Assembly (NCBI GenBank): GCA_973895155.1
Contig: OZ316893.1
Location: 16,212,645 to 16,276,644 of the forward strand
Length of the DNA: 64,000 nucleotides
Direction: 5' to 3'
DNA from: Marsupella aquatica
Taxonomy: Eukaryota > Plantae > Marchantiophyta
Part shown: one piece after another, positions 11,920 through 64,000 of the stretch
How positions within the stretch are numbered: position 1 is the stretch's first letter
How the letters are laid out: each line of letters starts with the position of its first letter
Notes under the pieces: generated by a model
What the model was told of the DNA's origin: nothing
The model's input: only the letters and a program-made list of their open reading frames with translations
Databases searched by the model: none
Translations under genes and position numbers: made by a program

Positions 11920-12079
11920 TATAGTTCATATTGTCTTCATTCTGCAGTTTGGTTAGTGACGCCCACAATTCCACGGTTCTCCTAATTGCGTCATTGTATA
12001 GTTCATATTGTCTTCATTCTGCAGTTTGGTTAGTGACGCCCACAATTCCACGGTTCTCCTAATTGCGTCATTGTATAGT
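11920..12079. repeat. Perfect 77-bp tandem duplication
   Basis: atagttcatattgtcttcattctgcag...gcgtcattgt starts at 11921 and again at 11998. Confidence 0.9.
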
Positions 12080-13439: not shown

Positions 13440-14700
13440 AGTTTTTTATTAAAAAATTAATGTATTTTTTAATAAAACCCCCAAAAGGGCAAAAAACTTT
13501 ATTCCATACAACCGACAACAAACTTCCTAGGAGAAGGAGGGGGAGCAACAAACAATTAAGGGGGCTGAAAACAGGAGCACACCTAGAGAAGAGAGAAAAC
13601 GCCCCTGTAACCTGTCCGCCTAGTATGAAGGAGGTGGAACAGAGAAGGAAGGAGGGACCAGGACACGGCTACTTAGGATCTAAACAATAGAGCCAAAAAG
13701 AGCAACATAGGGAACACAGAACGGCAGGCAAAACCTGATAAACCCAAGGATCTGTGATGGAAGGACCAACCCAAATCCCCACTGGCTGCCAAAAACCCCA
13801 GGGCCATTCCCTACAAACTATTCCCATGCATGCTCTTGTCAGATGTCATGTGTAATCCTCATTGGAAATCCTCTCGATCTATAGGTGAATAGGACCTGCT
13901 CAGAGTGGACCACAGATTGAACCATCAAACAAAGAGTGTCACCCTGATATATCCATGTGTAGACTCCCCCAGGTTCAACCCTCTATTCCCATCATATTAA
14001 ACCAGAATACCTCCATCAGAATCTGGTTCAACAGAAAAGGTTGAGGCTAGTATCCACCTAGCCAGGAGAGAGGAAACCACTATAGTGGTGTCCAAAATTG
14101 CCAACCAACCGAGAGAGCAATAACCCAATTGGCCTGTACCTCACCAACAATACACCGGGGTGCAGAAGAAGTGGCCTCCACGCCTGGAAATCTACCCATT
14201 TGGCATCACAAGAACAATAAAACCCCTATCTTTGTATCATCACATGTCACCTACATCTTGCATCACCCCCCATGATCACCAACAGCTGTTTCTTGTGCTG
14301 TGGATGTGTGTGCCTCCTTCCCAATTTATTCTCCCACTTTTTTCTCACCACTGCAGTAGAGAGACACACCCCCTGATTTTTCCCATCTTCCACCACCTTG
14401 ATAGTCCTCCGCACCTCACCACACAACAACCCCAGCCGAGGCCAGCCCAGTGGAGACAGGATAAGCAACCCCAAGACTGAACCATGAATGAACCAAGCTC
14501 AAAACCCGATCAATGAACAATCCTATATTACTCTAGATTTGCTGGACCTACGACAGACAAACTGAATAACTATACTAAGATCCTAGAACCATATAATGGA
14601 TCATGGCCAAAATACAATGCTACCATCTCCTACCTAGGAGACAAAAAGAACTGTCTAATCAAAAGGAGAGACCAGATCCTAGAGTAAAAGGAAGAACCCA
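13440..14700 (-). mobile_element. Possible heavily decayed LINE 3' end
   Basis: T/A-rich tail at about 13440-13480 and purine-skewed body. No intact motif could be read. Confidence 0.25.
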
Positions 14701-15218
14701 ATGTGTCGTATGCTAATAAAAGCAAATATCAAGAAATATATGCTAAAAACTCGGTGTTCGTTCCTGTGGAATAACAAGAATGAGATGATAAAATATTTTA
14801 AAGTCTTTTGAGTGGTTTAGAGATGGTACTCGACATCTTGAAGAAAAATAGAATCTTAAATAAAACATAGGTAATTAACAAAATATGAACAAAAGTGACA
14901 TTTGTTGAATAATAGAATCTTAAAGCTTTTAGAGGTATAGTTTAGCAATCTTTAAGTCCATCCTCATGTATTAAGAAGGAGTTATGGCATTGTTTGAGAC
15001 TGTCGTGACATATAGTATCGTAGCCATATAGTGTATCGAAAACATACAAGTCACCAGCAATGCATATGTGCAAGCTGCTAGCAACCAACATGCATAGAAA
15101 AAGTTCAATCACATTCACAAGTGCCAAGAAAAAGCAAGTGAGGTGGTATGTACGTAGTGGAGGTATAAACCTCTGTATCCCCCCCCAGACCACAGCCAAA
15201 AGGAGGGCTGAAGAAAAG

Positions 15219-16910: not shown

Positions 16911-17052
16911 TCAACGAGCAAGCTTGCCAGTAAGCTTGTCGTTGGTCATCAACCACTTCAAGGGCTGGTGGTCGGTGTAGAGAACAAACCTGGTCCCATA
17001 GAGGTAGGGCCTATAATGTATGACAGCCCACACAACAGCAAGGCATTCACCC

Positions 17053-19359: not shown

Positions 19360-22300
19360 CTAAGGAAATCGCTCTGAACATTCCAGCAGACGGGATTCAG
19401 CCACTTGCCTTGCACCTGGATCAATATCCACATAGATGTACTGCTTCACCACCATGCCAGACTGTAGGAGAGCTTCCAGGCCTGTAGAAATGCCACCAAA
19501 AAGCTCAAGCAATGTAAGGCCATCTGAAGGAGGAGTCCATGTAACTGGTGCGCTCAAGATTGGGGCTATTGGTAGTCCATGATGCTGCCCAAGGTCCTCA
19601 AATTTGTGCAATGCAGCCACCAAAGGTCCATGGGCTACTTGGAGCCGTTGTACCACCTCTGGTTGATGATCCACGTTGCTGGAAAGTGCTGCTACACGTG
19701 CAGCAGCATGTGCAGTAGCCACCTCATCCTCATCATCCTCAATCCAATCCTGCAATGGGTGGTTGACATAGGTAGCTATGTGCACTGCTTTCAATACACA
19801 GTGGTGAGCCATAGGTGTATGGGCACCATGCAAATCAAGTGGAATGTAGCCCAAGTGTGAGCCATCCGTATGCCAATCAACTCTGTAGTATGCATGCTCA
19901 TGCCAATTGTCAATGGTAAAACCTGGTGGGAACAAAGCCTCCTGGCCAATGAGCACATCATACGTAGTGGCATTGGTAACCAAACATCTGACTGGGAAAT
20001 GCAATTCCTGATCTGTACCTCCATTAAAAGTGAGAGTGAGTAAAGTAGAACTCTCACCCAGCACATCCTCCACAGTGCCACTAGCAGTCCGAATGTGCCA
20101 CCTGGATTGCTGTAAATGATCAGTCAACAGTCCCATCTTCTTGGCAAACTGAATGCCCAATATCACTGGTTGAGCACCTGTGTCTAGCATGACCACCTGA
20201 GGAGTGTGACCCTCCAACTTGACTGCTGAATTCCTGTTGTCAACAATGGCAATGGTGGTGGAAACTAAAGTCCTGTCACTAGGCACCACTTTTGGCAAAT
20301 GATGAGGTACCTTGTGAAGGGAGTTAGTGTCCACGGTCTTTCCACTCAACAACATAGCCAGGAAAGATGGAGCAGCATGACCAGAATCAAGTGTAGCTCT
20401 GGTCACACAATCAGCAGCAATCGGTACTGGGGCAGCCAAACCAGTGGAAACATGTAAAGGAGAAGAAAAAGGTCCAGTATGTACATGAGATTGGACCTCC
20501 AAAACCGGTGTCATAGGGGCTGATGAAGAATGCAGTGAGCCCTCTAGCGCTCTGATGACAGCTCTAGCATCCAGCTGTAAATCATGGCAACTGAAAAGTG
20601 GAGTTGTAAGAATCCTTTGTGCCATACCGGAGGTGAAATGCTCAAGCAGCTCAGGAGAAACAACTCCCTGTGAAATGTCAGCAGCACCTGGTGGTGGAAT
20701 GGATGTAGCTGCAGCTCCCTCCCCCCTCGCCAACAAGGTGCGCTCTTCAGCAAGTGTGAGTGGCTGAAAAGATTGGGGCAGGACAGCCCGAGCGCCCCTG
20801 GCTCTAGTCAGAGGACCGGCAGCAAGACCATCAGCCTGTACAATGCGGCGTGTGGGAGCAATACGGGAGGCAACACTGGCCTGCTGGTAAGCAAAATAGG
20901 AAGGGCAGAATGAATCTGAAAATTCTGCTGTAAGGCCAGGCTGTGGAGCAGAGGACAACACACACTCACCCATATGAGCATCAAATGGTAAGCCATAGAA
21001 AGAGCGGGGTAGAGGTGCTGAACTGTCAGCGGTGCCTGGGCCAGGGATGGGTTGCACGTGACCAGCCGGTTGAGAAGGACCAGCAGAGGCAGTGGACTTG
21101 CCTTTGATGTTGGCAAGTTGGGCACGTAAGGACTCAACCTCATGAGTCAGAGACTGGAGTTGAGTTGCCTGTGCGTTGTGAGCCTCCTTCTGAGCTGGTT
21201 GCTTCTGTGGCTGCTTGGGCAATTTGTTAGCACCGGGTGCTTTGCCACTGGAAGGAGGAGCAGTGGATGCAGTAGGAGCCCTCCTAGCTGGTGGGGGAGT
21301 GGAAACAGGAGCAGGATGAGTGGCCTGCTGTCGTAGCTGCTTCCTCTCGGGGAATTTGGCAAAATAGACTGCCTCCAAGTGGCCCACTTTCCCGCAAAAA
21401 TCACAAGATAGGTCCTCAGCAACAATATCACATTCATTAGCCTTGTGATTAGGGTTACCACAGTAGTTGCAAGATGGCAGCATGAAAGCAGCATGTGCTG
21501 GCTTGGTCTTGGAACCATACTGTGGCACACGGGGAGGAGTGGCCAGTGTAGGGGCAGCAGCCTGGTACCTGGATCGCGGTGGACGTGCAATACTGGCCTC
21601 ATAATGTGCATGGGCCAACTCAAGTTTCTCAGCAGTGTCATAGACATTGAGCAAGGTGTAGCTGTCTCCAAACTCTGAGAATACTTGTTGCAACACTTGT
21701 GAATGGAGAGCTGGTGTGCCCTCCAATGCGCGAAGATAGCGATGAGCAACTTCCAGGTCAGTGATGCTCTGGGTGTCCTCCTTCAGCTTGAGAAGCCGGA
21801 GATACATCATCTTCAATGTTTCATCGCGCTGCCTCACAAAGGTGGCCAACTGCATGATTTTGTCAGCACTCTTGATTGGGAATTCCAATTCAAGAACCTG
21901 GAAAAACTCAGCCACTGGATCAGCAAAGGCAGGGGAATCAATGGTGGGAGAAATGCCTGATGTAGCCTGTGCCAAGACAGTGGGAGTAACAGGCGCAGTG
22001 GTAGGAACTGGAGTAGGAGGGGAAGTGGCAGGAGCAGCAACATGGGCTGCAATGGCATTTTGTAAGGCCAATTGTGAAGCTGCCACAATTGCACTGGCAT
22101 AGGTAGGTGGGTTAGGCAACTGTGTGACAGCAAGCAGCCGTTGAGAGTGCTGCTTATACACATCTAAAGCCTCATGGTGCACATACCTGGCTAGCTGCTT
22201 AAATGCAAACGCATTTGTGAAATTGCTGCCGTACTTCAACTCCAATTCGTAAACGACAGTGTAAAAAGTGGATTTGAACTCACATAAAGAGACAGTGCCT

Positions 22301-22614
22301 GGCCGCCCGCTGAAGCGCTCAATGCGGCCAGATGAGTGGCTGGCATCCATGCTGTATGTCGGTGAAGCAGGAACAACCACTGATGCAGAAGGGGTAAATG
22401 GCAATGAAGTGATAGCAGGCTTCGGAGTAGTGGTGAAGCAACCGCCAAATGTAGCAGGAGGATTGCGTGGTGTTGGTGCTGCTGCTGTCTGCGGACGTCG
22501 TCGAAATTGACGAGACTCCAATGAAATTGGCACCAATGGTCGTGGATCACTCCGTAAGTGGTACCGGGGTGTCGGTGGCGATGAGCTGCTACGACTCGGC
22601 TCCTCTGCTGACAT
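19360..22614 (-). CDS. Gag-protease plus N-terminus of the C5 DNA methyltransferase (first segment of the polyprotein)
   Basis: Zinc knuckles CNYCGNPNHKANEC and CDFCGKVGH; aspartic protease VMLDTGAQ; DNMT motif I LLELFGGISTGLEAL and motif II YVDID. Ends at an in-frame TAG, and the same frame continues into the 19260 ORF. Confidence 0.9.
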   Translation of the reverse strand: MSAEEPSRSSSSPPTPRYHLRSDPRPLVPISLESRQFRRRPQTAAAPTPRNPPATFGGCFTTTPKPAITSLPFTPSASVVVPASPTYSMDASHSSGRIERFSGRPGTVSLCEFKSTFYTVVYELELKYGSNFTNAFAFKQLARYVHHEALDVYKQHSQRLLAVTQLPNPPTYASAIVAASQLALQNAIAAHVAAPATSPPTPVPTTAPVTPTVLAQATSGISPTIDSPAFADPVAEFFQVLELEFPIKSADKIMQLATFVRQRDETLKMMYLRLLKLKEDTQSITDLEVAHRYLRALEGTPALHSQVLQQVFSEFGDSYTLLNVYDTAEKLELAHAHYEASIARPPRSRYQAAAPTLATPPRVPQYGSKTKPAHAAFMLPSCNYCGNPNHKANECDIVAEDLSCDFCGKVGHLEAVYFAKFPERKQLRQQATHPAPVSTPPPARRAPTASTAPPSSGKAPGANKLPKQPQKQPAQKEAHNAQATQLQSLTHEVESLRAQLANIKGKSTASAGPSQPAGHVQPIPGPGTADSSAPLPRSFYGLPFDAHMGECVLSSAPQPGLTAEFSDSFCPSYFAYQQASVASRIAPTRRIVQADGLAAGPLTRARGARAVLPQSFQPLTLAEERTLLARGEGAAATSIPPPGAADISQGVVSPELLEHFTSGMAQRILTTPLFSCHDLQLDARAVIRALEGSLHSSSAPMTPVLEVQSHVHTGPFSSPLHVSTGLAAPVPIAADCVTRATLDSGHAAPSFLAMLLSGKTVDTNSLHKVPHHLPKVVPSDRTLVSTTIAIVDNRNSAVKLEGHTPQVVMLDTGAQPVILGIQFAKKMGLLTDHLQQSRWHIRTASGTVEDVLGESSTLLTLTFNGGTDQELHFPVRCLVTNATTYDVLIGQEALFPPGFTIDNWHEHAYYRVDWHTDGSHLGYIPLDLHGAHTPMAHHCVLKAVHIATYVNHPLQDWIEDDEDEVATAHAAARVAALSSNVDHQPEVVQRLQVAHGPLVAALHKFEDLGQHHGLPIAPILSAPVTWTPPSDGLTLLELFGGISTGLEALLQSGMVVKQYIYVDIDPGARQVAESRLLECSERFP

Positions 22615-22939
22615 GCTGCATGCTCACCCGGGGTGCCTAAATCAAAAATGTCCCCCTTCCCGGTGGTACGAGGTGCTGAGGGGAAAGAAACTGACAAGAA
22701 AAATGGGTGCTAGCCCCAAGGCTAGGAAATAAAACCCACAAAGGAAACAACCGTGCGAGGCAGAAATGTGTAGACTGGCCCTGCCGAAAATATACTCACA
22801 AAAAAAATGAACAGAAAGAAAACAAGAGGAAACGGCGAAAAGGGGCCTCCGTTATGTGTATAGACAGGGGTCTGTGTATACACATAAAGGGTACCGGTCG
22901 GTGTTGGGTATTTACTCTTACGTCTAGGTTAGGTATGAC

Positions 22940-45252: not shown

Positions 45253-46832
45253 CACTAGTACAGAATTCACCCTTAATCCAATTCTCCTCAAATCGGACCC
45301 CTTCGGCAGATTGTTGCAGTTTTTACCGATGTTCCAATTTAAGTCGCATTGTATCATCCAATCCCCAAACAATCGGGTTAGCGTTATCGGACCGAGATCG
45401 GACTTGTCCAATTAAACTAGTATCGGAAAGACGCATACAATTCAAAAGAAATGGCAAACAATTGTCCAATTATGTGAGAATGGCATGACCATTTCCAAGT
45501 ACTTCGCAATCGGAAACTATTGTGCTATTGTACTACAATGGGACAGGGGTCCCAATTAGAATCAAATCAAAAATTGAAGTGCGATTACCCCAATCGGCGG
45601 CCCTAGTGCTGCCCGGCCTGATCCTACTCCTCCACGGGTTGCATATCACTAGCTAACTGGTGTATTCTTTTGTGTGAGGCTTCAAGTCTTAGCAAGACTG
45701 TGGGCTACTAGAGAAGTCAGGTCACCCATCCCAAACACTATTCCTCAATAGGTGCTTAACTTCCTAGTTCTTAGCTCTTGCGTTGTACATGCAACCTTAG
45801 GCACATTTGATGTTTCTTATAGAGTGCCTGGGGTTTTTATACACCTTTGAGTTCATTTAGATCCACAGTTTGGGCCAATTCTTGATGAATTCTTGCGTAT
45901 CATGACATTGGGTTGCGTGTTCAATTATGAAAGCTCTATGTTGACCATATGGGAACCAATTTACCTATCAATGTTAGATCTCCAAACAAACCTATGTCCT
46001 CCTCAAATTGCTACAATTCCTTTTGGGGCGTGGTTAAGTTCATTTAGGGATACAATATATATAGAATTTTGACCTAGATGACAATGAAGACAACTATTTT
46101 TGTTGACCGCAAGAATTTTTTTTCATCGAGTCAAAAGGCTTTGACTTACAATTTAACGAAAACTTTTGGTAACCATTATAGGGTAGTGCATTGTAAAGAT
46201 AGGAATGGCCATTGGCATAAGATTTCTCATCCTAGGAACACATACTACAAAGGCTATGCTACACATGATTCAGGACCGGTCAATACTTTCCATGAGCAGA
46301 TGAGGGATGACCCTGGCCTTGCCAAAGGTTCCAATTCTAAATGAATCGTAGACACACTTCCAATTCCCAAAGAGTTGGACCAAGATCTCATTGTATTTGT
46401 ATTGCAAATATGAATCCCATTGCCTACCACTTGGAAACAATTGTCCAATCCTGAAAACCTTGGAATATCCAATTCCATGCGCATCAAAAACTTCCAATTT
46501 GTATTGAATGGCAACTTCCAATTCTAATTTGATCGGAAAACGTGCTTACATTTTTCTTTGGAAAGGGGTTCCAATTCATCTAGCATTGGAGAAGAATCGG
46601 ACCAAGCGGTCCAATTGTTTCTGGCTTGGACAAACAATCCAACTTTTCCTACATCGTAGTGACGGCCCGTTTGTGATTGGGTTGGAATGGTGATAGTCCA
46701 ATTCTAGTTTAATGGCAAGGTATGATACGCGTTGGCTTGGACGGTTGGATCGTACATCCAATTAGAATAGAATCGGAAACCTTGGCATCATCGGAAGGTG
46801 AGAATCGGACTAGGCCCCAAAATGTACTAGTG
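45253..46832. mobile_element. Non-autonomous CACTA element (1580 bp)
   Basis: TIRs CACTAGTACA (45253) and TGTACTAGTG (46832). 3-bp TSD CAT on both sides. ATCGG/CCAAT subterminal repeats. Confidence 0.93.
45719..45771 (-). other. 5S rRNA-derived fragment (not a full gene)
   Basis: aggtcacccatcccaaacactattcctcaataggtgcttaacttcctagttct aligns to the reverse complement of the plant 5S internal region (AGGTCACCCATCCTAGTACTACTCTCGCCCAAGCACGCTTAACT.CGGAGTTCT). Confidence 0.6.
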
Positions 46833-49203
46833 CATGCACATCATGATTAGAGGCAACTTCAATCATATGTCTCCATGCGGTTTCAAGAGACAAGGAGTCC
46901 TCCGCACGGAGCTCACAAGTGAAGATGGTACAAAGGGACTTGTAATTATGGTTGTACACATGGGCGCTGAATGTCAGCCACCCAGTGCTTATTCTCCGCA
47001 TCACATCAGAACTGATCCATGCTCCTTCCAGCTCACCTCCACTCCTCATCTGCCTGAGAATATCGACACCAGAACCTGGGCCATTGGTACTCATTTTGAA
47101 TACATGAGCCCTATCGGTCTTGCTCCCCTGGCCAGGGAAAATGTACCTCTGAACGTAAGGAAAATTATTCCGGGCTTGCATCTCACGAAGTGAATCCAAC
47201 TCACCTTTTTTTGGGTTATCCATTTTCACGCTCCGGAATATGGTCTGGAATTTCTCAATAGTGGACACAACTTTCATCGATTCCCAAATGTTTCTCTTCT
47301 TCTTTTGATAGTTCTGAAGAAGACTCTAGATGCAAAAGAGAAACCAGGTTTCCTATAGACTTGTTAAGAACACGCCTTGGCATACACACGGGATTTGCTT
47401 TATGAACACCAGAAACTATCTCCTCCGCCTGCTTTTTTGCCAATCAAGATTTCCCTTTCCAAACAACGTGGTCATGGAAACCCATGTGAACAGCCAATTG
47501 AGACATATGTTTTGCAACATTTGACTCAAGAGATGGCTTAGGATAGACGTACAAAAGTTTAGCCGGACATTCACGGATGCAGAGAGGCCTCTCCTCACAG
47601 AATCCGCACACCAACCCTCCTTCCTCCACAAGCTCACCAAGATGAAATGGCTCATGCAGTAAATTGTCCCTTTCCTCGGAAGGAAGAGTCATTTTTTGAA
47701 CCGGTGTGCTTCAACTTTCTACAGACCAGATTTTGACATTCAAGTACACCGGCACATCTGACTTTCGACACAGACTAGTGGTTGCGAGGTTTGAGATTAG
47801 CTGAAGTTGTGAGAAGTCTCGTCCATGGGTAGCCATCATTATCCCTATCCATGTCCTGAAGACCATATCCTCAACAAAATTGACCTTTGACTGGAGGAAG
47901 CTCAAAAATGCAGTTCCCGTTGTATGAAGTGGGCAAAGTCTGCACTTGAATCTCCTTCCAATCGTTTCCCCTCCGGAAATTTGCCAACTCGCTTGACCCA
48001 ATAATATTGAGGAAGGCATCATATGCACTAACTCTATAAAGAACTGGCTGAGATTGAAACTCGTTTTGACTCACTGCTTCAAAAACGGCTTTCTCAGAAG
48101 ACTTTATAGAGACAGAAGAGAGATCCCAACCCACACTCTCAGGGGAGATGTCGATAATTTTGGGTACTGCAAGTGACAGGCGAGTCGGCAATTCTGGATC
48201 TGAAACATTGATATGTGCAATGTCATCCTTGCATGAGACTAGCTCTACACCTGAACCACACTTCAGGTCCCAAGCTCTCTCTGACAATATTCCTTAACCA
48301 TTATCCGACACCTCGTGACTTCTGGATCCATTCCGAGAGTAAAGAAGGAACAACTTCCAGATGAAATCATCTTCCAAAAGCCCAAACCTCGATGAGAGGA
48401 AAGACTCCTTGACAGAGATAACATTATTCTCCGGAACATCCAGAACAACAACACCACCCGTCTTCTTTCTCTCGATCACAACCTTCGACCCCATAGAAGA
48501 CATGCTGACAGTTTTGGACATTACAGTCTACAACAATCCTCAAATGTGAGATACTTTGCTCTCCTCTTTCTCCAAATACATATGAGGAAACGTGCTCGTG
48601 TAGGTGTTTGACTCAACGTATTTATTTAATAAATGCCTCTTCTTCCCGTTACCTGACTGTTATTTTGTCTTATTTGAAACTATTTAATGAATGATAAAGC
48701 TAGCAAGATCGCTAGCTCAATCTACCATGTAAAATTGGTCAAAAACGTACATAACACCCTTCACGAGTTCGTGTATTTAGTGACCAGTTTTTGGCTAGCG
48801 ATGTCGCTAGCAAAAATAGTTTGTCATAAGTGACCATTATGACCATTTATATCCTTTGGAATTGGTCAATGGGTACCTCTATGTCAATGGTACGGTACAG
48901 TATAGGACACATGTCTCTTTGTTATTAGCTACTTTTCTTTCAGTCATGAGTTTGGTTCTTTGTATTTTCAGAAGTACATGTATACCTGACGGTGTCTGAA
49001 AAATGACTGTGAAGAGCGTCAAACAGAATATCTGCATCTCTTTTCACAACCGGGCGCATTCAGGTGAAAGCAACAGACAAGGGTACGATTATGTCTTTGA
49101 CTAGATGATTGATTCTCGGGTTTCAAGGATTTCTTTACGTTTGCAAAGCGTGTCGCCCTCGACCTTGACCTGTTCATACCCTTATCACGTCACGGACCCG
49201 CTG

Positions 49204-52200
49204 ATGGAGCCATTGCCTTCACCCAAGAGCTTGTCATCAATAGAATCGTTTCAAGTCAGTCGAGTCAAGCCGAAGGGAGACAAGGTCTACAGCAAACAAG
49301 AAGGCACTCCAGACAAGATTGAAAACACCAAGGAGATCAAAGATGGTGAACCAAGTGGATTTTGTGAATCCTACGTTTCAACCTGGAGCTTCAGAACCCT
49401 ATTCTGTTGTCATCAATCGCTATCTTTTCTCTTTTGGAAATGACAAATTTGGATTCCCCCTCGCTCCTCCAAGGATTCCTCTTTGCAGAATGCAAAATAT
49501 GCAGATCGAGACACTCAAGAATGAATTTTGGATGCAAGGATACATCGAGGATGCGCCTCAATTTTACGTACAAATGACCGACAAAGAGGGCCATGTCCAG
49601 ATGTGCGACGACATGATTCGGGAGTCGTGGGATGACATGTGGATTCTTCAGAATGAAGAATTCGAGAGGGAATGTGATTCTCACGAAGCTTTCAAAATTT
49701 TGAAAGACAAAATGTTTTGTGTTTTCGATGGAAATCATCGTCTCTACTCATGGATGCAGCTTGCAGACGAGAATCCACATGATGTCAAATATCATCCTCG
49801 AGTTGTTTGCCAAATTTTCAAGGGTGACAAGAACTCATTCGTACAGATTGAGTCGGCGATGCATGCGTTGAATAGGTTTGTTTCTTTTCCTTCAAGCAGT
49901 GAATTGTATATAAAATTCTTTCATTTCCTCTTGTTAGCGATCTCACTGACCTGTTTCTTTGGTTCAGGTTGACTCAATGTCACGTTGAGAATTCTTGGGT
50001 TCTTGAAGCAGAGTGAGTCTAGAAGGTGCTCAGCAATGACCTTTCTGTATACAAAGATATCATTGATGCAGACAACTACAAACTTTTCCAGCAGAAGATG
50101 GCAAATATCAGGAAACCAGCTTGGTGTTCAAAGAACATGACACTCGATGCCTGCACATACATTCTGTCTACTGCTAATATTGCAGCGCAGACGGAAGATT
50201 TGAAGAAGAAGTTCCAATTGAAAGAAGCGCAAGGAGAACCTCTTTCAAAAGTTTCACAAGACATGGCTGTGAAAGACATGATGAAGGAGAAACTAGCAGA
50301 TTGGAATGTGAAGGTGCCAAAGATTGGACCTCTTTTGAATCCTGAGTTTGGTGAATTTTTCCAGAAGTGTGTTGAGATGCACAACTATTGCAAACATGAG
50401 AGGACAAAGGCCCAACAAATAGACGATAAAGGAAGGGGTAATGTGTCATGTGGTCTCGATCGTGCGAGGCTATTTACGGGTGTCTCTTCGTTGACTCCGT
50501 AGCTCAGATGTGTACTACTTGAGGCACAATGCAGACCTGAGCTTTGCAAGAAGTACTTCCACCCTGGTCAATTCTCGGACAGCAAAACAAAACTTTGGCT
50601 TCACCGATGGGTTGTATGGGAGCAGGTCGAGTCAATTTGTTCTTCGCTCATGTCTGAGATTATTTCAGAGTTGATCCCAACTGTTCCAGATGCGAGGATC
50701 CTTACTTTGTCTGAGAAGACAAAGCCATCGCTGATCCTTGACATAGAGGACTTTGAAGATTTCTAAACAAGAGTGAAATCTTGTTTTTTCAAACAGATTT
50801 GGCCACCAAAGTCGGGTGAGAAGATTGACATCTCACTTTTTTGGAGGAGGGCGAAGAGATATACGTATTGTTTTTTTGTGGATAGAGAAGTTGCTGACAA
50901 AACATATTGGTGGTCCTATCCTACTTGCTTCTCGCCTTGGATAGAAGGGGTGAAAGAGGATCCAACCTCCATTAAATACGAAGAGTACTCGATGTACCCA
51001 TGTGAGGGAGTGGAGGCTCCAAGGAACATGAGTGAGTGGGAAGTCCTTCACTGTCCATGGTATTTAGAATCAAACACATGGGCAATGACATTTGACACAG
51101 CAGAGAAGGCAGCCTTTCATATGATAAATCGAGGCTTGATACCAGAGTCGTACATTACAGAGTCCAAATTAGCTCCTGCAGAAGCAGAGGCTGGCGGATG
51201 TGAGGCAATAGAGAAAGTTGTTCTTGGTGTAGCTGCCATTGTTGACCGGAGTAGATTGAGGAGACCTCGGAAGGTGCCGGTGAAGGACACGTCCAAAGAT
51301 GGATCAGTTTTGTCTGGGAAGCAAAGTAAGTCTTTTTCTCCTCTTTTTTTCATACCTCAGTCGGAGTAATTTTTTCTAAGTCACCTGTCTGACATTGACA
51401 TGTTTTTTAGAGAAGAGAAAGGCTGCAGCCTCTGGGAGTTTGAAGAGTGGGGCGAATGATGGAGAAGAACCCAAGTCTCCTGATGTTGAGGTCACAACAA
51501 AATCTGTTGTGGACCTTGGTTCAATCAAGCGTTTAAAGAGGAAGCGTAATGTCCAAATTCTCTCTGACTCGGATGAGGAGGAAGCATGCGTCGCTCAAGG
51601 AGTAGCACGAATGTGTGGTCTTAAGAAGGACGGTGAGAGAAATTTCTTGGCAAAGAGCAATCTCATGGAAACTGCAAACTCAATTAGCCAGAGGAAAGTA
51701 AGACCTCCCTGGATGGGCGATGCGGATCAGTGGTTGTTTGGAATGGGCAAATTGAGCAAACACCCAAACCCAGTGATGATCAACGGCAAACATTATGCTA
51801 GGATTGGTGCTCACTTGGGTTTCATTTTCCTTCCCATGGTCATCGAACGAGTGTCACAGACCGGGAGGTCCCGAAGTGGAATGTTTGGAGTGAGAAATTA
51901 CCATATTATTTCTTTGGAGTCATGCGTCCGATGCTTGCCGACGATGGTTATGTCGCAATTCTTCACAGCTCTGACTATAACCATATGAGACAAAAAAAAA
52001 TCTGCCGTCGAGCAGACAAACAAATTCAAACATGTCCGGTAGTATTCGGTTTTGCTTTCATCTCCTTTGTATCAGGCAGATATGGACATCGAGGTAAGAT
52101 ATCCACGATAGTTTGCGTGCAGTTTTTGCTAGCGAGCTTGCTAACCAAAAGTACCCATTTCTGACATATTCTTATTTTCAATTCAGGTAGTTACTCTCAT

Positions 52201-52661
52201 TATGGATGTCTTCTCCAAGGTGGAATTCTGAGAAAAGTCCCAAAACATACAGGATATGTTCCAGTGACTTCCTCTAAGGATGCCCGCCATAAATTGATGT
52301 TGAGTGTTTGCTACCCAAAAACTGATCCTAGTCCCAGGGTGGCTTTTGCAGGTTCCAATAGATTGTCAGTTGGGTTCATGCAAGCCGTAATGGAGATCCT
52401 TACTTTGCCAAAGGACATTGTCATTGACTGGACTGTTGGAGATGGAAGTGCTTTTGCCGCTGGGGAATACGTTGGGAGATTCATCTGTGTGCACAAAAAA
52501 CTTTGGCAAATATGTTGGATAGACATGCCCAGAAGTTGAAAGGGGCCGGAGATCCGAAGAATGATGATCCCAATGATGAAGGATCGGATGATGAGTTCAC
52601 GATCCCAGGAGATGATCAGGGAGGACCTGAAGACAAGAAGGATGAATTCGACCTGGAGTAA
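49204..52661 (+). pseudogene. Spliced gene: ParB/Srx-like N-terminus plus degenerate beta-class N4-C/N6-A DNA methyltransferase-like C-terminus
   Basis: VFDGNHRL at about 49720-49745. Candidate GT-AG introns about 49876-49967, 51326-51410 and 52093-52186. GFIFLP(Y/H)G..WNV..LADDGYVAILH, then RLSVGFMQAVMEILTLPKDIVIDWTVGDGSAFAAGEYVGRFI. Several stops and frameshifts. Confidence 0.6.
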
Positions 52662-53424: not shown

Positions 53425-54242
53425 GAATACCTAAAGGAAGAAGGGCTTCCTCCCATCACAGAGAATACTCTCTACAAGATCTGGAGCAACTCATTTGCAA
53501 ACTTCAGTTTCCATAAAGGTGGTGCATTTGCCAAGTGTACTCTTTGAACATTGTGAATACAAAGACAATTTGATGCAAGAAAGAAGGAAAAAAGAATGTG
53601 CTAAAATTGAAGAAAAACGAGTGCAACATCTTCATGAGCAAATGTCACGTAGATATGTTTACTACGCTTATCAAGTGATGGCCAAGCAACACCTAGGAGA
53701 ATATCTTTGCATTATTCATGACAAGATGGATCAAGCAAAGACATGGATTCCAAAAATAGTTAGTACTCCTAAATCACTTTTGGGTCATGGAATGCCGCAT
53801 TCCTATTGCTCTCATAGGGATGTTGACTCACGGGAGGGATCCAGGAGTTTATGCACATTTTGGTGTCATTGGCCTTTGGCCATAAGATGCCAATTTTACG
53901 GTGACATCCTTGGCTAAGTGTCTTCAAGACCTTGAAGAGTACAATGGAGACAAGACAGGTGACATGTTGGATGACCTTCATTGGGAACCTCACAGACCTT
54001 TCTTTCAAGCCCTACTTGACCTTGAAGCATTTTTGATGGGTTATTTGGAACCAAAGAATATACTAGTGAATAGGTATATTGGTTATGAAGATGGAACCGA
54101 CAATTGGACTGAGACCGTCCCAAACCGGCAAGATGAGGATGATGGAGAAGACATGCATGGGGAGCAAGGCAGCCCATCGTTCAAGCCCTTACCAAGGCAC
54201 CTAACATCATAGATGGATAATTCAGCAAAGGACAAAAAAAGC
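53425..54242 (+). pseudogene. N-terminal/central part of a DDE transposase (Sola-like)
   Basis: FAKCTL..HLHEQMSRR..CIIHDKMDQAKT..GMLTHG..DANFTVTSLAKCL..PLPRHL..MDNSAKDKK, ending at a CACTA TIR. Confidence 0.75.
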
Positions 54243-55279
54243 CACTAGTACATTTTGAGTTTTCTTACCGATTGTATTTCCATTGGACGCCTTCAAGAAA
54301 TCCGACGCGGAAATCTCACCTGTTCAATACCAAAAGAATTGCATTTTACGATCTAATTTGTATTGGAAAACGACAATCGGAAACCAATCGGAACTACCAA
54401 TACTACAAAGTTTGGGAGTTCTATCCTTTAAAATGTTGGGAATTGCTATGTCCGATGCTGGTTAATTGGATGTCTGTTCCGCACATTTTCTGTTAACGGA
54501 GGCATCCAATTCTAGACTGATAGTATGGGCATGGAAATTCCCGATTGTATTGGGATTGAAAACATCCAATTATTTGGGGAACGGAAATTGAGATTATACT
54601 AGCATCAGACTTTGCAATACTTTGGGAATGGAAAATTACGATCATTGTGGCAACGGATATGGATCAATATCTACCGGAAACTATTTGGCGAGCTTGATTG
54701 GGCCGATTTTAAATGGGGGGCTAATTGGGGGTTTAATTGGGGTGCAATTTAATTCTTTAACTGAGTTTTTATTTAGGGTTTAGAGAGGGCATTTAGTTGA
54801 TGGAAGTGAGACTATGAATTTTGATTGCACACTATGTACCTTGAAACCCGGGCATGACATGGCGTAACTATATCTTATATACAAATATGAAATATCCAGG
54901 GCAAAAGTACAAAAATGGAGAACATCTCCATGCATAGTGCCAGCTATGCTAAAGGCTGGGCATATCAAATGTACATAATGCCCTCCAACTATCCACCTCG
55001 CTAGCCTGGTACTAGATGTATATATGTCTACCTAGTCCATTATCCATACAAGCTATGTCGCGTCTTCCTCTTCTTCACACGGGAATGACTAGGCTGCTCT
55101 GCTCTACGAGTCTCTACTACTGACACACTAGGTAGCACATCATGGTCCTGGCTACCTGATCTGCCTCCATCGTCATGTGGATGAGGGGCAAAAGCAGTCT
55201 CTGGTACTCCCCCACCTCCAGATGCGCCTGAGCCATGGGAGGGCACTCCTTCCCCGACACAAGTGTGGAAAGAAGCCCC

Positions 55280-56000
55280 TCTAGCACCACCACCACTACC
55301 CCCCTCAGGCTGAGTCTCACCTCTATCACTATGATGGGAACCTCCCCTTCATGGAAACTCAGTTCACTCGCTCCGCCATCCGGGTGCGGATGAATGCGGA
55401 ATAGAGCGCACACGACTGGGTGCCTACACCACCACTATGAATAGGAGATGGTGTGGGCACATGACCACCAAGGCCCCCCCGACTGTCGCGAACCAGCTGG
55501 TACACTACCAGGGCCAGCCCTAAACTGACGAGGTGCAACAACTCCACCACTACCCCCTCAAGGCGAGACTCACCTCCACCACTATGGCTGGAACCTCCAG
55601 ACTGGATGCCTACACCACCACTATGAACAGGAGATGGTGTCGGCACATGACCACCAAGGCCTCCCCCTGACTGTCGCAAACCAGTTGGTACACTACTAGG
55701 GCCAGCCCTAAACTGACAAGGTGCAGCAACTCCACCACTACCCCCCTCAAGGCAAGACTCACCTCCACCACTACGGCCAAAACCTCCAGACTGGATGCCT
55801 ACACCACCACTATGAACAGGAGATGGTGCCGGCACATGACCACCAAGGCCTCCCTTGGACCGTCGTAAACCAGTTGGTTCACTATCAGGGCCAGCCCTAA
55901 ACTGATGAGGTGCAGCAACTCCACCACTACCCCCCTCAGGGTGAGACTCACCTCCACCACTACGGTCGGAACCTCCTGACTGGCCAACGACATGACCAGT
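55280..56000. repeat. ~189-bp tandem repeat, 3-4 copies, giving a Gly/Ser-rich minus-strand ORF
   Basis: ggtgcagcaactccaccactacccccctca recurs at about 55532, 55720 and 55909, with a partial copy near 55290. Confidence 0.85.
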
Positions 56001-59000
56001 ATGAACATGACCTGGTGTGGGCATATGAACACCAGCCCGCTGTCGAGACCCACCTAGTACAACACCAGGGCCAGTCCTCACTTGACCACCTGCTATGGCT
56101 AGAACTTGGGACTCACTACAAACCCTTCGGTTGTGACCTAGTGTGGCTGGAACCCGGGAGTCACTCCGTCCACTCCTACCGGCTAATCTCTGACAAGAAG
56201 GAGGCCTATCACCTGCTCTGCGCTCCATCCGGCAAGTGGAGCCACCTACACCCCGACCAGACTGGTGACATCCAGTCACGGAACTTGACTACCTTAACAC
56301 TTAGCTCCGGCATCGTTGACTCCGACGCCAAGCTCCCTTATGGTCCAGGCCCGGATAGGCCATCCGAGGAGGACTTAGCATGGGGAGGCTTGTGGGCAAT
56401 GAGACGTGGCACTAGCAAAGGCAAGGAGCCAAGCTGGTGACACACACTAAAGACTTAGGCAAGCTAAGAGCTGGTTGGGTCAAGGGGAAAGGGGCTGGAC
56501 TCAAGGTCGACCATCTGGGCCCCCAGACAGACTTTGAATTCTAACGACTTAAGTGTGAGCTCCTCTTGGGCCCAAGGCCAATGGAGTTGACGCCATGGGC
56601 AACGGACGCTCGGGGCGTGAGTTATGGCCCAATCCGAGTTTGGCCGATCGGGGACCCCGAGCGGCAATGAGACCTGAGGGCCTAGGCATGAGCATTGGGT
56701 TGGCCCAATCACAACGAGCTAAGGTAATCTGCTTGCGGACGCCTAACGAGAAAGTTATGGGCGTCGCCAGTTGGTGGCGCGCCCACTATGTGCGATAGGA
56801 TCCGGGTTGGAGGCCAAATGTTTAGGGGCCAAAGTTGGTACGGGGTGGCAGGTCTCCAGAAGCATATATGAGGGGAGTGGTGTCTCCCTGGGGGCCAAAG
56901 GCGAGCCGAAGTCATGAGCCGCGATGGTCGCGACACTAAGGGAAAGCGCCAAACGGAAACGGCAATAATTTTCCAACGGGAAGTCCGTCAGAGAACTTCT
57001 TTGGTGCATTGGAAAGAACTTGAGGAGGGCTACGTCCTCCTGAGCTCATCTGGGTCTGGGGGTGCCATGTGTTCTCAAGGTTTGCGGGTGTTAGCTCGCT
57101 CGCTTGCCAAATCCTGCCGAGCAACAACCAAGCCGTGTTCAGTCGCCCAAGGGAGCTTGTGTTGGGGAGGCAAGGCCAAGTAGGTGTGGAGGTTGAGTTC
57201 CAAGGGTGCTTAGCCCCTAGACCATCAGTGGGGCGAACCGGGAGTTGGTTGCTAGAGTCAAGGCCATCCTGGTCCCGACGTGTTGGGACAAGCTTTAGGA
57301 CAAGCTACGCTATTTGGGCCATGAGCATGTCCTGGGGTCAAGGCGGTCAGTTGGTGATAGGGTATGAGGGGGAACCCGGGCCGTGCCCAAGGAAGGAGCT
57401 GTTCTGGACAAACAGTGGGCGTTGTCATGAGGTTTCCATCCTAAAGGAGGAATCCTCATGTTTTGTGAAAGAAGTTGAAACCATTTTTGCTTCTAACTTG
57501 GGCAAGTTGACTTGACTTGAGCTAACTTGACCAAGGTGATGGAGGAAGTAGAGTTATGAGGGTCAAGGTAGGGATGAGGTCGAGCCTACCCACCCTTGTT
57601 ACTATTGTCCCGGGGTATATTTTTCATTTGTGACAAACAAGGTATTTAGGGTTTTGGCGACATGGTGACCAGGTCCATTGAATACATGAAGGAGGTGACC
57701 AAGTTCAAGGCATGTAGGAGGGTTTGGTCCAAGTGCATCAGTTTTGTGAGATTTAGACCAGATTCAGATTTTTGTGTTAAATGGACCAGATTCAATGTAT
57801 CTACTTCAATGGTGGATCTTGGTTTTGGTTAATGGATGGTTTGGATTGAAGGTGGAGATGTGAATTAGGGCTTGGTGGAGGTCGTGGCTTTTTCAAAAAG
57901 GTCGAAGCTCTTTTGGTTTGCAAGTTACTAAGGAGGGGTTTTTTGGCTCATTTCCGGCCGTTTGATCTAATTGGTGTGAGATCTAGGGCTGTGATTCAAC
58001 GAGGACTAAAACCATAAGTGGAGGAGCTTGTGGGTGCCCTGGGCCTTCCCACGTGGGTACTAAAGGAGGAAGTTCGAGTGGCCAAGGGTTCGGAAGTTAG
58101 ATACTGCTGAAGTGCTGCCGTTTTGCCGTTTTGGAGTGTTTAGTCCCATTTTTGAGTTGTAGGAGCGAACCTCTAGAGGGGAGCTCGAGGATGAGGCATG
58201 TGTAAGGGAGGAGCCCTCCTCCTTGTCTGTGGCCTTAGGTTCTTGAGGGTAGGAGATGTAGAACTCATTTTTAGAAGGAGAAGAGAGAGGTGACACTTGG
58301 AATGTTGTCACTTGTGATAGTTTTTTCTAGGGATTTTGAGGGAAGTTTCGAATGTAGGAGAGGCTGATCCGAAGCCTTAGGAAGGAGGTATACCATGAGT
58401 AGGAAGCTTAAGGAGCATGCATGAGAGATTGCCCACAAGAAAGCATACTCGAATGTAAGCTCTTGGCTCCAAGTTTTGAAGGGTTTGAAGTAGTAGGGCT
58501 GATTCAAAGCCTTAGTGGTGATATGTAACAAAAATTTCCTGAGCTTGTGTGTGTTGCATGAGAGAGGGCTCATTAAGAAGGCCTACTCAAGTGCAAACAC
58601 CATGGCTTGGGGGTTTTGAAGGAGGATGGTAGGTGTAAGGGAGTAGGAAGGGAGACAAAACTATTTTGAAGTCTTGAGATGGCTATGGTGGTAGTTTGGA
58701 GGCTAGGTAATGTCTTACTTGGTGTTTGAGCTTGTTTGGTTCTTCTTTGCTAGGAGGGTCTTGCTTGTGACCCATATTTTGACTTAGAAAAGTCCATGAT
58801 GTTTTTCATGTGCCTTTTGCCATGCATGTAGAGGAGTGGACTCTTTGGTTTTTGAAAGATGGTGTAGGAGGATTGTTTTGGGTATGAATGAAGGATGAAT
58901 GTATCATTTGTGAAAGCTATGTGATGTAATGGGTGTTTTTGATGATGTTTGAAGGCATTTTGAAAGTAGAATGGTGAAGGCATTTTCAGAAGTAAGGTGT

Positions 59001-60331
59001 TTGAGTTGGAAGGACTATTTGAATGAGAAAGTAGCTTATGATTGCTTATAGCTTGTGAGGGTTGCTAGAGTAATGAGTTTAAGGTTGCTTGATGTTTGTT
59101 AAGGAGTTTGTTGACCAAACCAAGGCAACCATGAGCAAAGTTGAAAGTATGTTGATGCTTAGAATGTTGAAAGCTATAAAGGATTGTTCTCACAATTGGT
59201 TATCTTCTCATGCAGCCATGCACCCGGTGTGTCCTTGAGCCTCTTTTCCCACCTCTTTGCTTATCCTCAGGACAGCGTGGGTTCTGGTTCCGGCTTATGG
59301 CATCGGGAGGACCTATTGTTGACCTATTTATCAACATCTATTGAGCTTGAGTTAGGATGCTAGACTTGGCAAGTCCTAGATCCTGAAGGGTTACTTACCG
59401 AGGTGCTTGGTTGCTTGTGCAGACAGTGAGGACCGTTGAGTAGCGGTCGTGTTGGAGAGCAAGTGCGGCTTCGTATGGGATGGGCCGTTGGCGGTGCAAG
59501 GGGCACTAGGTTGCTTGCTCGAGGTCTTCCGTGGAGGCGTTCGGGCACCAGGGGCACTTAGGCATGAGTTCTGGGATTGGTGAGGGCACTGGGTGGCAAG
59601 GTCCACCACTCATCCACTCTCTCGGGGTCTTGACTGGCCACGCGCACCAGTAGAACCTTGTACTGGAGCCTCGGCCACACTCCCCTCCGAAGCACTATCG
59701 TCCTCCTTGTCCTCCTTGTCCTCCTCCCCATCACCATCCTCCTCACTCTCCAAGTCCTCCTCACCCCCTGACTCATCCTGCACGTAGTAACAATCTCCAA
59801 TCCATATGTCATTCCGCAACATATGTACTAGCATGAAGCCATCTTTCAAATCATTCTAGTATCCGCACTTACCGAGGCTAACATGTTGTCCATGTGAATC
59901 TCTAGCGCCCAAGCACCATGCTCCTTTGCCACCTCTCTCTCTGCCAACAACAATGGTCATCCGTGCTCCTTCTCCTACACACCCCAACCATATGCCACCC
60001 CCAATACTAAGGTCAATTATAGCAACCCTACCCTGGCCTAATTAAATGTTCACCTAAACCCTTCACCGTCAAAGACCCATAAGAACACTTAGCCGTTCAT
60101 GCACAAACTATTCAAAAATTTGAATTTTTCCAATACTATTAGAATTGGTACCCTCGACAATTCCGATTATTTTTTAATGTCCGATGCTGCATCCAATACT
60201 TAAAGGATCGGACTAGAATCGGACCTTACATGCCGAAAGCAAAAAAAACTGAGGCATGATCGAGCGATCGACCTATGGGCATACAAAGACCTGTCATGGG
60301 TTTGGAAGGGTTAGGCATTTGTCAATTGGCC

Positions 60332-61402
60332 TCAGGGAGGAGGACTGCTGCTGAAGTAATGCATGGAGAGGAGGGGAGTGGAGCACTTACAAAATTGGCC
60401 TTGAGACACTATGATCCACCTTGCCCCATTCTGTGAGTAACCTTTGGCCTTGTTGTTACTCTCAGCAGAGCTTTCATTAGCCAGGATGGTGGGTCTCCAA
60501 GCAGGGATGATTTTGCAGACCATTCTTCAAGTTCCTAATGTATGGGTGCAGTATTCACCATCTCTCCTTGTTGAATCTTCTTCTGAGCTACTTGAATTTC
60601 AGCTTCCCAGCGTTGTGTGGCTTGCCAAGCTCAAACCTGCAACTCTTCTTCAAGCCAAGCACATGCACCAATCATCCTTAGGAATCTCACCAGTTGGGCT
60701 TCCACCTTTCCAGATCACCTCCTCATCCAGTTTGCATTCAACCAGGTACTTTTGCATCTTCTCTCATACATGATTTTGCATGTCTGCAAGTGAGACTAAG
60801 ATCTTTTTGTTTAAGAATCGATCATCCACAAATGACCCATTCAAAAATCTCTCTTTGATTTGCTCTCGAATTTGAAATCTCTCATCCTGCTTCTTCTTCC
60901 CCCAGTAGTCCATCGGGCCAAAATGAGACCTCACAATCTGCCTAACTTGACTCCCAAACAAATGATAACTCCTGGAGAGTGGAGGACCTCCCTCATTTAG
61001 AAACAATTTTGGCCTCTTGGCCCCGCTCTTGGCCCTATCCTCTGCCTTCTTTCGTTCCTCTTGAATTCTTTGTTGTTATGCAGCTCGAGCCTCCCTCCTT
61101 AGGCTCTTCTCCTTTTGTCATGGAGATAGGGCTTCCACTGGCCTCTCTCTCTCATCCTCCCTAGTGCTACGTTTCCTCTTCCTCTGCAATCTCTCCTCCT
61201 CGAGTCTGGCTTGGAAAGCTTTTTCTGCATCAGTGATGGCTACCTTGTGGGATGTGTCGATCAGTCCTTGAGTGAGCTGAGCTACCTGCAATGCAACCTC
61301 CGGCAAGAGCCCCACCTTCTCCCTAAACAATTGAGCCATGACTTCACTATAGCTGCTTGATGGCCCGGCACCATCTCCCATCCCTCCCGCATTCCTTTCC
61401 AT
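60332..61402 (-). pseudogene. Decayed accessory gene of the CACTA element (possibly TnpA-like), with a basic NLS-like stretch
   Basis: ORFs 61118-61402 and 60764-61006 are in one frame, separated by stops. Contains RKRKRS. Divergent from the gene at 62467. Confidence 0.4.
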
Positions 61403-62466
61403 CGCTACAAGCTCCGCAAAGGTGTCGTGAAATGCTCCCGATGCTCATCCCGACTAGAGTGCCTTCGCACTTTAGTCAGGTGACCTAAAAACCCAAAACG
61501 CATAACATCCAATACTTTTTGCATCGGAATTTCCGATTCTAGGTCAATCGGACTAAGTATAGGACCCCTCCTCCAAAGTATCGAACTTAACCCTGCCAAT
61601 GTGTTTTCTGATGGTTTTTGAATGGCATGACCTTGGCATTTGGACTTTGGCATTTGGATCCCATGTATACTATAATTTCCCCTTGTATGTTTGTTGGGGA
61701 TTAATTATGCTATATTGTGGGCTTATTAGGTGTGCGGCGCAAAACGGGCATATCAACGTACAGTTGCCATGACAAAGCTAGCACACTATGTTTTGATGGG
61801 TATGGGTGATCATTGAATGTATGTACCCAGTTTACATCTATTTTCAGTTTGATTTAAAATGATTCCCATTTTGACCATGAGGCAATGCTATATGCATGGT
61901 GCAACTTTTGGGCACTATAAGAAGTCACAAATTAAATTAACACTCTAGTGCCGTTTTGTGCCGTTTTGTATTTTTTGTTTTTGGAGGGTCAGGTCGTTGC
62001 TTTTCCTTGGTTTTCTTAGTAGGGTTTATTTTTGCCAATGCATTATGCACAGCGAGAGTCCGCGCATCCAAAAGGTATGACATGATCCTCTAAAATGTAT
62101 TGGAAATATTTGACATGATATATGCGTTACTTGTGGGAGTTTATAATTGGACATCCAACTTGTCATTGATTTTTATTAATTTCATTAATTATTGGTTTGT
62201 TACTAAGGTTTGCATGTATGTCATCTCATCTTTCAACTTCCCCACCTAGCCTATATGTGCAGGTTTTTTGGATTGGCCTTAGCATATAGTCTAAGGCTTG
62301 GAGCCTAGTAGGCACTGTAGAGCGCGGATATCATTCAGATACTAATTAAGTCCAACACCGCAAATTATTAACATACTATATATTTCCTGTTTGGGTTTAC
62401 CTCAAGTTAGGGTGATGAATCAATCTTGCATTTTGGTAAAGACTTGTTGTGTGTAATTGGCAGACA

Positions 62467-63769
62467 ATGTCAACTTCTGAGAGTTTGGATACAGATTCCA
62501 ACTCTGACTTGTCTTCCTCTGAGGGGGACATTCCTCCTCCCCCTCAACATCCTCGAGCACCCCCTCCATTAGGCCCTATTCCATGCTGGTGTGTTAGATG
62601 TAAAGGACTGGTGGTGCGTCAAGCGTGGCAGTCCATTGAACACATCGAAAACTATGGTCGACATGAGGGTGATTTACCAGGATATTCAGCTCGCCAGGTA
62701 TTGCTTGACATGAACTCCGCTATATATGATACACTATCATAATAGTTGGCTGGTTTGAGACCTTTTAGGAGACAAGTATTAATTTTTGTTTGTTTATGAT
62801 TGAATAGGTGCCTTGTAGGGCCCGTCCTCCATTGGTCTCTAGTCAGCTAATGCATGATGCATTTCTAGCTGGTGCTAGACAGTTGCTTGCATCATCAGTT
62901 GAACACCCTGAGCAATCATGTACCCCCGCACATGTTCAGGAAGATGTTGTTTGTGAACCCACAGTGGTAGAGTTGGAGCATGGTAGGGATGATGCACCGC
63001 CCCCTACTAGGGTTCTACGCACAAGACCACATTCTCATAGACGTCAACAACAGCATGTAGTTCTAGACATAGACCCATCCCATGAGCACTTCAGAAGCAG
63101 TGTTATGCCTCCACCAGGGGAGGAGTACATAAAAGTTGAAGGGAGGTTGGGCTTATCATATGTGACGGGAAAGACAATCAGTGTCTTCAAGGATTTTGAC
63201 CCTAAGAGTTTTGCGATTCCTCGTGGCCTAGCCATTGATATCCCTGTACATATATGGGGTCGGCAATGGATAGTGAAGGCATTGACCCTTGGCGGGGAGG
63301 TTGGATTAGGCTATTTGCTTTGGAGGACATTGAGGTCCCTCCAAAGCCTTGGCGTCGTGGCTATGATGGGGAACACCTTTTCCCTTACATTGGGTCTGTG
63401 TATACATCCAAGAGTTGGAACATCCTCTTGCGCCAACATCCAGTTTGGGGGGTATATGCATTGCAGACGGACTCTCACCCAGATGAGGTCCTAAGGAGGC
63501 CTTGGCATTGTAGGATAATTGATGGGGACCCTGTGCGTTCAGATAACATAGTTGGGTACATCAATAGTACACATGGTAGAGGGAGTGGACTCCAGCCTAA
63601 TGTAGAGTGGGCTCAGATTTTTGGCCCACCCACTCCGCCTTACTATGTCACACATATGGATGATCATGTTATGACAATAGCCATACGGACCATTAGGGCG
63701 AGTGATGAGTTGTTTTGTGACTATGAGTGGGACGCACCCAAGATGGGCATTCGATCTGGCCACACTTAG
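62467..63769 (+). pseudogene. Spliced gene: CACTA transposase-associated Zn motif plus SET domain (one frameshift); probably continues past the window
   Basis: Exon 62467-62697 with IPCWCVRCKG..IEHIENYG. Phase-0 GT-AG intron 62698-62807. SET motifs GLG|LFALEDI, FPYIG, IIDG..NIVGYINS, QPNV, AIRTIRASDELFCDY. 1-bp frameshift near 63310. A further exon may start near 63941. Confidence 0.75.
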
Positions 63770-64000
63770 CACATATGTGTATTCCCCATTTTTGAAGTAA
63801 TATAAGAATATTGTATTTTTTTAGGAATCCATGGGCTAACTCAAATGTATATATCCGTTTCGTGCGTTGTATGATAGAATGCATATGTTGAGCCGGATGT
63901 TGGGGTGTTACCACGAGCTATGCGCCAACACCTTGTTCAGGCCATAGAAGATTGGCGACATGCCTCTCTACCACCAGATGGCGATCTGGATGTTCCAGAG

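Follow-up and report, generated by a model that had tools for sequence, protein, structure and literature searches.

A decayed CACTA transposon copy in Marsupella aquatica with a putatively element-borne SET-domain exon

A SET-domain exon downstream of a Cys/His exon

The window, by which we mean the whole 64-kb stretch of Marsupella aquatica DNA analysed here, is plant DNA rich in transposons; it has GT-AG introns and several remnants of Copia and Gypsy type. Exon 1 of the SET locus (62467..62697, plus strand; 77 codons, 231 nt) starts with an ATG that follows an AG and ends at a phase-0 donor, with GT at 62698. It encodes a Ser/acidic start followed by CWCVRC..H, a CxCxxC..H pattern that may form a zinc module. 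The exon's position and its CxCxxC..H pattern resemble those of PF13963. The first-pass annotation, made from the sequence alone, had gone further and equated the motif with PF13963. That assignment was not confirmed: six exon-1 pieces, P0016, P0029, P0048, P0089 and P0090 gave no HMM match at E-values up to 10, and the Cys motif matches no Pfam family. Matches to exon 1 in the Atlas were all below 0.9 and none had a name, while exon 1 used as a search query, a weak test, retrieved no longer proteins.

A GT..AG intron (intron 1a, 62698..62807, plus strand) separates exon 1 from the SET exon. It was read from the sequence, and the same junction is present in the Calypogeia fissa model CAM6082608.1. 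The SET exon (62808..63769, plus strand) opens after the AG at 62806-7 and encodes a Pro-rich linker, a family-specific pre-SET extension and a SET core, ending in its own stop at 63769. The order of the two exons is thus as first annotated, with SET downstream of the CxCxxC..H exon. The frame changes by -1 near 63311. The first-pass annotation had proposed that repairing one base near 63310 restores a SET signature; the motifs that it named are indeed present, and the frame downstream of the shift alone scores above the cut-off of the Pfam SET family PF00856 in the HMM search that it had suggested (25.1 bits, cut-off 22.4, E-value 2.4e-5).

One extra base behind 63311 was present in six of seven sequencing runs from four studies (X1, X2, X3, X4, X5 and X7) and absent in X6, where depth was below 3. 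The missing base in the window could conceivably be a sequencing error. The window copy also departs from all X1, X2 and X5 contigs at other positions, and its changes at 63552 and 63701 strike an Ala and a Gly of the SET core that the family has at these places. The extra base and these further changes together indicate that the relatives are in frame and that the window copy has decayed. Contig depth in X5 was 55-92 for the main contigs and 4-8 for minor ones, which fits several copies, although depth is not a copy number. Among named proteins, the unbroken C. fissa CAM6082608.1 comes closest to the SET frame, with 73% identity over 85% of the query, and it links the two exons found in the window. 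The other named relatives come from Riccia sorocarpa, and these best matches point to a liverwort as the probable host.

No phase-0 GT donor was present in the final 90 bases of the SET exon in the window. Beyond the stop, a phase-0 acceptor opens a frame that runs to the window end (63878..64000, plus strand) and is likely the first exon of a transposase body. This acceptor lies 108 bases past the SET stop, compared with 147 in relatives, and the exon starts with AG/AAT in both. The relatives' exon at the equivalent position runs in frame into Tnp2. The protein likeness between 63878-64000 and that exon is weak (shuffle p about 0.016).

The CACTA end and the body of the window copy

The left terminal inverted repeat of a CACTA element, CACTAGTACA, lies at 54243..54252 on the plus strand and is identical to the terminus of a non-autonomous CACTA element at 45253-46832. 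Four exact copies of CACTAGTACA occur in the window (45020 and 46823 on the minus strand, 45253 and 54243 on the plus strand); with one mismatch, there are 11 matches in the window versus 3.05 expected. The terminus is followed by a subterminal repeat block (54243..54700), which was delimited from word counts and overlapping contigs. The 500 bases from 54001 to 54500 contain three ATCGGA-type and four TCCAAT-type words, against a background of 0.19 and 0.49 per 500 bases in 1-44000, and counts of these motifs exceed background at the other CACTAGTACA ends as well. Contigs 54369-54696, 54647-54971 and 54654-55066 overlap and lead from the subterminal block into the element body. The region had first been described as opened by this repeat. 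The repeat and its subterminal block are there, but they lie 8.2 kb upstream of the SET region and not beside it.

The element body at 54783..56270 (minus strand), probably the 3' part of a divergent gene, is joined to 59613 in other copies. Within it, 55283-56114 consists of four to five tandem units of ~189 bp and, on the minus strand, holds an open frame of 309 codons rich in Gly and Ser. The following 3342 bp (56271..59612) are a nested high-copy repeat foreign to the CACTA family, with CATCCA at both ends. Contigs of runs X4 and X5 join 56270 directly to 59613, and X3 has a near-identical joint; the shorter sides of these joints are 22 and 29 letters long, below the 31-letter bar of the tool. 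Depth over 56271-59612 was 10-100 times that of the flanks in most bins. Many copies of the nested repeat lack an internal segment of 1856 bp (57419-59275). With the 3.3-kb insertion set aside, the CACTAGTACA end at 54243 is linked to the SET region. Read contigs cover 59613-63997 piecewise.

A second gene, broken by stops, runs divergently from the SET locus (59613..61444, minus strand), and related elements keep a homologue in the same place. In tblastn searches it matched the related loci L019, L008, L007 and L004 (E-values 4e-7 to 8e-4), and reverse searches with L006 and L008 returned to 60385-60534 (E-values 2e-7 and 9e-9). None of its nine pieces matched any Pfam family above the cut-off. 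We infer a TnpA-like role for this gene. Clusters of the subterminal motif also occur at 60001-60500 inside the divergent gene and at 61501-62000 just upstream of it, between the two divergent starts; these are possible binding sites for an element protein. The 64-kb window contains no transposase core, and neither the right end nor the target duplication of this copy falls within it.

Related loci carry SET and transposase in one CACTA element

We examined related loci from a metagenome scan, in which 20 of 63 candidate stretches were related to the window locus. Since 19 of the 20 belong to one family (91-95% identical), the loci are not independent; the only others are L001, a sister at about 75% DNA identity, and the Riccia models. 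Two further scans, both of which needed a near-exact motif and say nothing on origin, found no relatives among 18 candidate stretches from viral contigs or 37 candidates from prokaryote genomes.

Transposase sequence followed SET in 11 of the 12 loci with at least 600 bases downstream, strongly in nine and weakly in two. The sole miss, L015, is cut inside SET, and the remaining eight loci are too short. One locus, L019, is a whole CACTA element of 9893 bp (6087-15979) with a CACTAC left end, a right end with one mismatch, and ACA on both sides as a 3-bp duplication. It encodes Transposase_21 (E-value 9e-39) and DUF4218 (E-value 2e-22). A transposase of this TnpD type is likewise present in Riccia P0022. 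Near its right end, a 143-codon frame on the minus strand (14689-15120) has no Pfam match. CACTA-type termini are thus present at 54243 in the window, at the left ends of L005, L007 and L019, and at the right end of L019. The left end is common to these three loci while their flanks all differ, indicating separate insertions. The proposal that a CACTA element carries its own SET gene is therefore borne out by relatives that have both ends, the 3-bp duplication, Transposase_21 and DUF4218, and by selection on the SET core, as described below.

The exon structure of the window locus is shared with these relatives. An exon-1 homologue lies upstream of SET in nine related loci, and exon 1 is 231 nt long in the window and the related family and 234 nt in L001. 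The exon-1 donor is conserved in 10/10 loci, the SET acceptor in 10/12 and the next acceptor in 14/15. All 19 related loci that cover it have SET's own stop, three codons past the last Tyr. The next acceptor follows about 150 bases past this stop, and its frame continues directly into Tnp2. The SET exon is open in five of the 12 loci that span it.

Beyond these loci, a search of cluster representatives placed the SET relatives in 60 clusters at 50% identity, with several family members per Riccia genome. In a quick tree of 69 SET cores, built without host SET classes, the window sequence grouped with C. fissa and P0005/P0066 (SH-aLRT 99), and the Riccia cores fell into more than one group.

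We next compared the family majority sequence with L001 to look at selection. Over 193 SET codons, dN/dS was 0.28 (dN 0.12, dS 0.43), whereas it was 0.80 in the linker and 0.50 in exon 1. The SET value was obtained by simple counting on a single pair and has no confidence limits. It is an indication that the SET core has been under purifying selection between the sister families, in line with the dN/dS check that the first-pass annotation had suggested. The 19 copies, when compared with their majority, had a dN/dS of 1.03 and 18 new stops, as expected because copies decay after insertion. In the transposase exon, 15 copies gave a dN/dS of 0.51 rather than about 1.

The SET domain lacks a post-SET region and has NS in place of NH

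The predicted model of the C. fissa protein was confident across most of residues 130-335, and pLDDT in the SET region mostly exceeded 90. SET domains were its best fold matches (Z 11.9-11.3, rmsd 2.4-3.2), and LegAS4, SET8 and MLL1 held the top Foldseek ranks. Because COMPASS, PRC2, SET7/9 and SET8 were tied at Z 11.3-11.9, the substrate or target lysine cannot be read from the model. A single-sequence search of the PDB gave no match, and a profile search gave weak SET matches (best E-value 0.023). Structure-based alignments put no canonical host SET class nearer than about 28%. In place of the usual peptide-binding region, the family has a long insert specific to it.

The catalytic motifs are largely kept in the aligned proteins, including GxG (36/38 and 37/40), Tyr/Phe-x-Gly (40/41) and the last Tyr (38/39). 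The Asn of the NH motif is kept in 38 of 43 proteins, the other five having Gln, while its His is Ser in all 43, which agrees with the altered NHS motif first noticed in the window. Judged from these alignments, NS is a family trait and not decay. Two places after the last Tyr stands Trp or another bulky residue. The proteins end a median of 7.5 residues past the last Tyr (38 proteins), and 37 of the 38 end at most 27 residues beyond it; there is no Cys cluster and no post-SET region. The post-SET region closes the active site of SET lysine methyltransferases, and its absence, like the NS motif, may lower or abolish activity.

A published account names XGXG, Y and NH as cofactor motifs of SET domains; it states that the Asn of NH bonds SAM and that, in the ternary complex of SET7/9, the His faces away to the outside (PMC5094779). 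Since the Asn is the SAM contact and the His faces outward, NS is compatible with activity. We consider it rather likely that the SET product is an active methyltransferase.

A nested exon and its possible function

The SET exon is very probably element-borne and selected. Alternatively, the locus could be a SET gene of the host, or a piece of host sequence that a Pack-CACTA carries passively; the lack of a transposase core in the window and the broken state of the window copy would fit this. Against it stand the fixed position of SET in the elements of Calypogeia, Riccia and the related-loci family, the dN/dS of 0.28 between families, the 60 clusters with several members per Riccia genome, and the distance to every canonical host SET class in the structure-based alignments. 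It is largely refuted, and we regard it as extremely improbable.

How the exon is used bears on the original proposal that SET is fused to the transposase. Because it has its own stop and no in-frame donor, the SET exon is likely an alternative last exon and not part of a fusion, and from the exon structure we would call this probable. On the simplest reading, the SET exon sits within the transposase gene's first intron and serves as an alternative last exon. In a fusion, SET would be spliced onto the transposase as a single zinc module-SET-Tnp2 protein that marks or reads chromatin at insertion sites. Three models do run from SET into the next exon, namely R. sorocarpa KAL3684834.1, which combines SET and Transposase_21, KAL3691187.1 and P0060, but these models are predictions and two of the three drop the last Tyr of SET. 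Only these models join the two parts. The 19/19 own stops, the missing phase-0 GT at the end of the window exon and the early ends of 37 of 38 aligned proteins having the last Tyr speak against a fusion. The fusion claim was therefore not upheld, and we consider a fusion quite unlikely.

Under the alternative-last-exon reading, one pre-mRNA would be spliced in two ways, with all splice sites in phase 0. Joining exon 1 to the SET exon would give a protein with a zinc module and SET, while joining exon 1 to the next exon would give a TnpD-type transposase; the two products would have the Cys/His module in common at their N termini. This shared module could recruit the SET protein to the element, or to the transposase that it encodes. 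There, the SET domain would bind SAM and methylate a histone lysine on the element's own chromatin, and with this mark the element would resist silencing. That the SET product acts on the chromatin of its own element against silencing is a possibility that we put forward tentatively. Taken as a whole, a decayed copy of a CACTA family whose conserved SET exon lies between the Cys/His exon 1 and the transposase exons, with splicing in two ways and a SET product that methylates the element's own chromatin against silencing, is the account that we moderately favour.

Two other functions would keep the nested exon but change what its product does. SET may be kept as a non-catalytic reader or decoy that blocks silencing or guides insertion by binding either a histone tail or one of the host's methyltransferase complexes. 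The change of NH to NS in all members and the missing post-SET region fit this; selection shows function and not catalysis, and inactive SET domains such as MLL5 are known (PMC5094779). However, the residues lost in MLL5 (GxG, Tyr and Asn) are kept here across proteins of 25-73% identity, and we find this reading unlikely. A methyltransferase could also be active on a non-histone target, such as the element's transposase, its divergent protein or a host silencing factor, and tune transposition. No histone-mark class stands out among the tied fold matches, the usual peptide-binding region is replaced by the family-specific insert, and exon 1 is common to the SET product and the transposase; yet a shared exon fits targeting to the element's DNA equally well, and a non-histone target seems very unlikely to us.

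More broadly, bryophyte CACTA elements might encode a distinct compact SET class, with NS and no post-SET region, that is aimed by a zinc module shared with the transposase via alternative splicing and keeps the element active through a histone mark. This would be a histone-writing anti-silencing system of land-plant transposons, a reading that we offer as speculative and somewhat doubtful.

Comparison with known SET-carrying transposons

The idea of a SET-carrying transposon is already known, even within the EnSpm superfamily, since cases in HarbingerS, MuDR, Helitron and Plavaka elements have been published. The accessory gene PAG2 of red-algal Plavaka elements (EnSpm/CACTA superfamily) carries a SET domain with a proposed chromatin role (bioRxiv 10.1101/2025.02.11.637652). 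Like the window family, it is thus a case of SET carried by a DNA transposon of the EnSpm superfamily, and activity is a proposal in both. PAG2 is described there as a separate gene that combines an N6-adenine methylase with SET in a three-gene cassette beside the Plavaka transposase. In contrast, the window family is of the plant CACTA type, places SET as one exon after exon 1 and before the Tnp2 (PF02992) exons, and has no methylase domain; this comparison is one of layout and not of SET homology.

SET genes in HarbingerS and in Phytophthora MuDR families are cited in PMC12730594, and SET-carrying Helitrons in bioRxiv 10.1101/2025.02.11.637652. Going by these citations, they resemble the window family as DNA transposons with a captured SET accessory gene, but they belong to other superfamilies and hosts, and the descriptions given there mention no first exon shared with the transposase. 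The Arabidopsis VANDAL elements encode VANC, an anti-silencing protein whose function has been shown and acts via DNA hypomethylation (as cited in PMC12730594 and bioRxiv 10.1101/2025.02.11.637652). Both systems thus have an accessory protein shown or proposed to counter silencing of its own family. VANDAL differs in belonging to the MuDR superfamily and having no SET, and for the window family anti-silencing is only inferred.

Maize En/Spm has CACTA ends, a 3-bp duplication and subterminal repeats, and makes two proteins, TnpA and TnpD, from one pre-mRNA by alternative splicing. The CACTA-SET family is alike in its ends, duplication and subterminal repeats, and is presumed to be alike in its splicing. 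Unlike this family, En/Spm has no SET exon, and the second, non-SET gene of CACTA-SET elements occupies the left end on the opposite strand and has no Pfam match. SETMAR, a host SET gene fused to a domesticated mariner, also combines SET and transposase in one locus, whereas the SET of the window family moves along with a mobile CACTA and has a stop of its own. The SET domain of SETMAR is among the fold matches of the Calypogeia model (row 35).

In the literature searched, which did not include Repbase Reports or most subscription journals, we found no title or opening of an abstract that mentions a SET exon carried by a CACTA of land plants. A nested exon sharing exon 1 with TnpD, and an NS domain without a post-SET region, were likewise not found there. 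For the oomycete and red-algal SET transposons, the role given in the cited sources is a proposed one. The CACTA-SET family occurs in land plants, is diverse, has members with open frames (the five loci above and the C. fissa model) and has relatives in Riccia. Riccia is a liverwort allied to the laboratory model Marchantia. With this diversity, the open-frame members and the Riccia relatives, it can be tested directly whether a transposon is able to evade silencing by writing histone marks. An NS motif together with the absence of a post-SET region would make for an unusual SET architecture, and even an inactive SET would remain a chromatin-binding accessory that selection has kept in CACTA elements.

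Other mobile elements in the window

The non-autonomous CACTA element at 45253-46832 is complete, with a length of 1580 bp, CACTAGTACA at both ends, a CAT 3-bp duplication and dense subterminal repeats. Since it has the same terminus as the SET element, it may have been mobilised by the latter. A further right end of the CACTAGTACA type lies at 45029.

A broken multi-exon gene occupies 49244-52660 on the plus strand, with transposase-like remnants beside it on the minus strand (46813-48500). Inspection by eye suggests a ParB-like motif near 49720 and one resembling a DNA methyltransferase near 52420, but neither was supported in Pfam and PDB searches. ParB-like and DNA-methyltransferase-like domains are found in red-algal Plavaka accessory genes (bioRxiv 10.1101/2025.02.11.637652). 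Finally, a Gypsy-type element lies at 15222-22623 on the minus strand, in which protease, RT, RNase H, integrase and a C-terminal PHD finger scored above the cut-off. Between its protease and RT, a cytosine-methyltransferase-like stretch, which has no Pfam match, was seen by eye.
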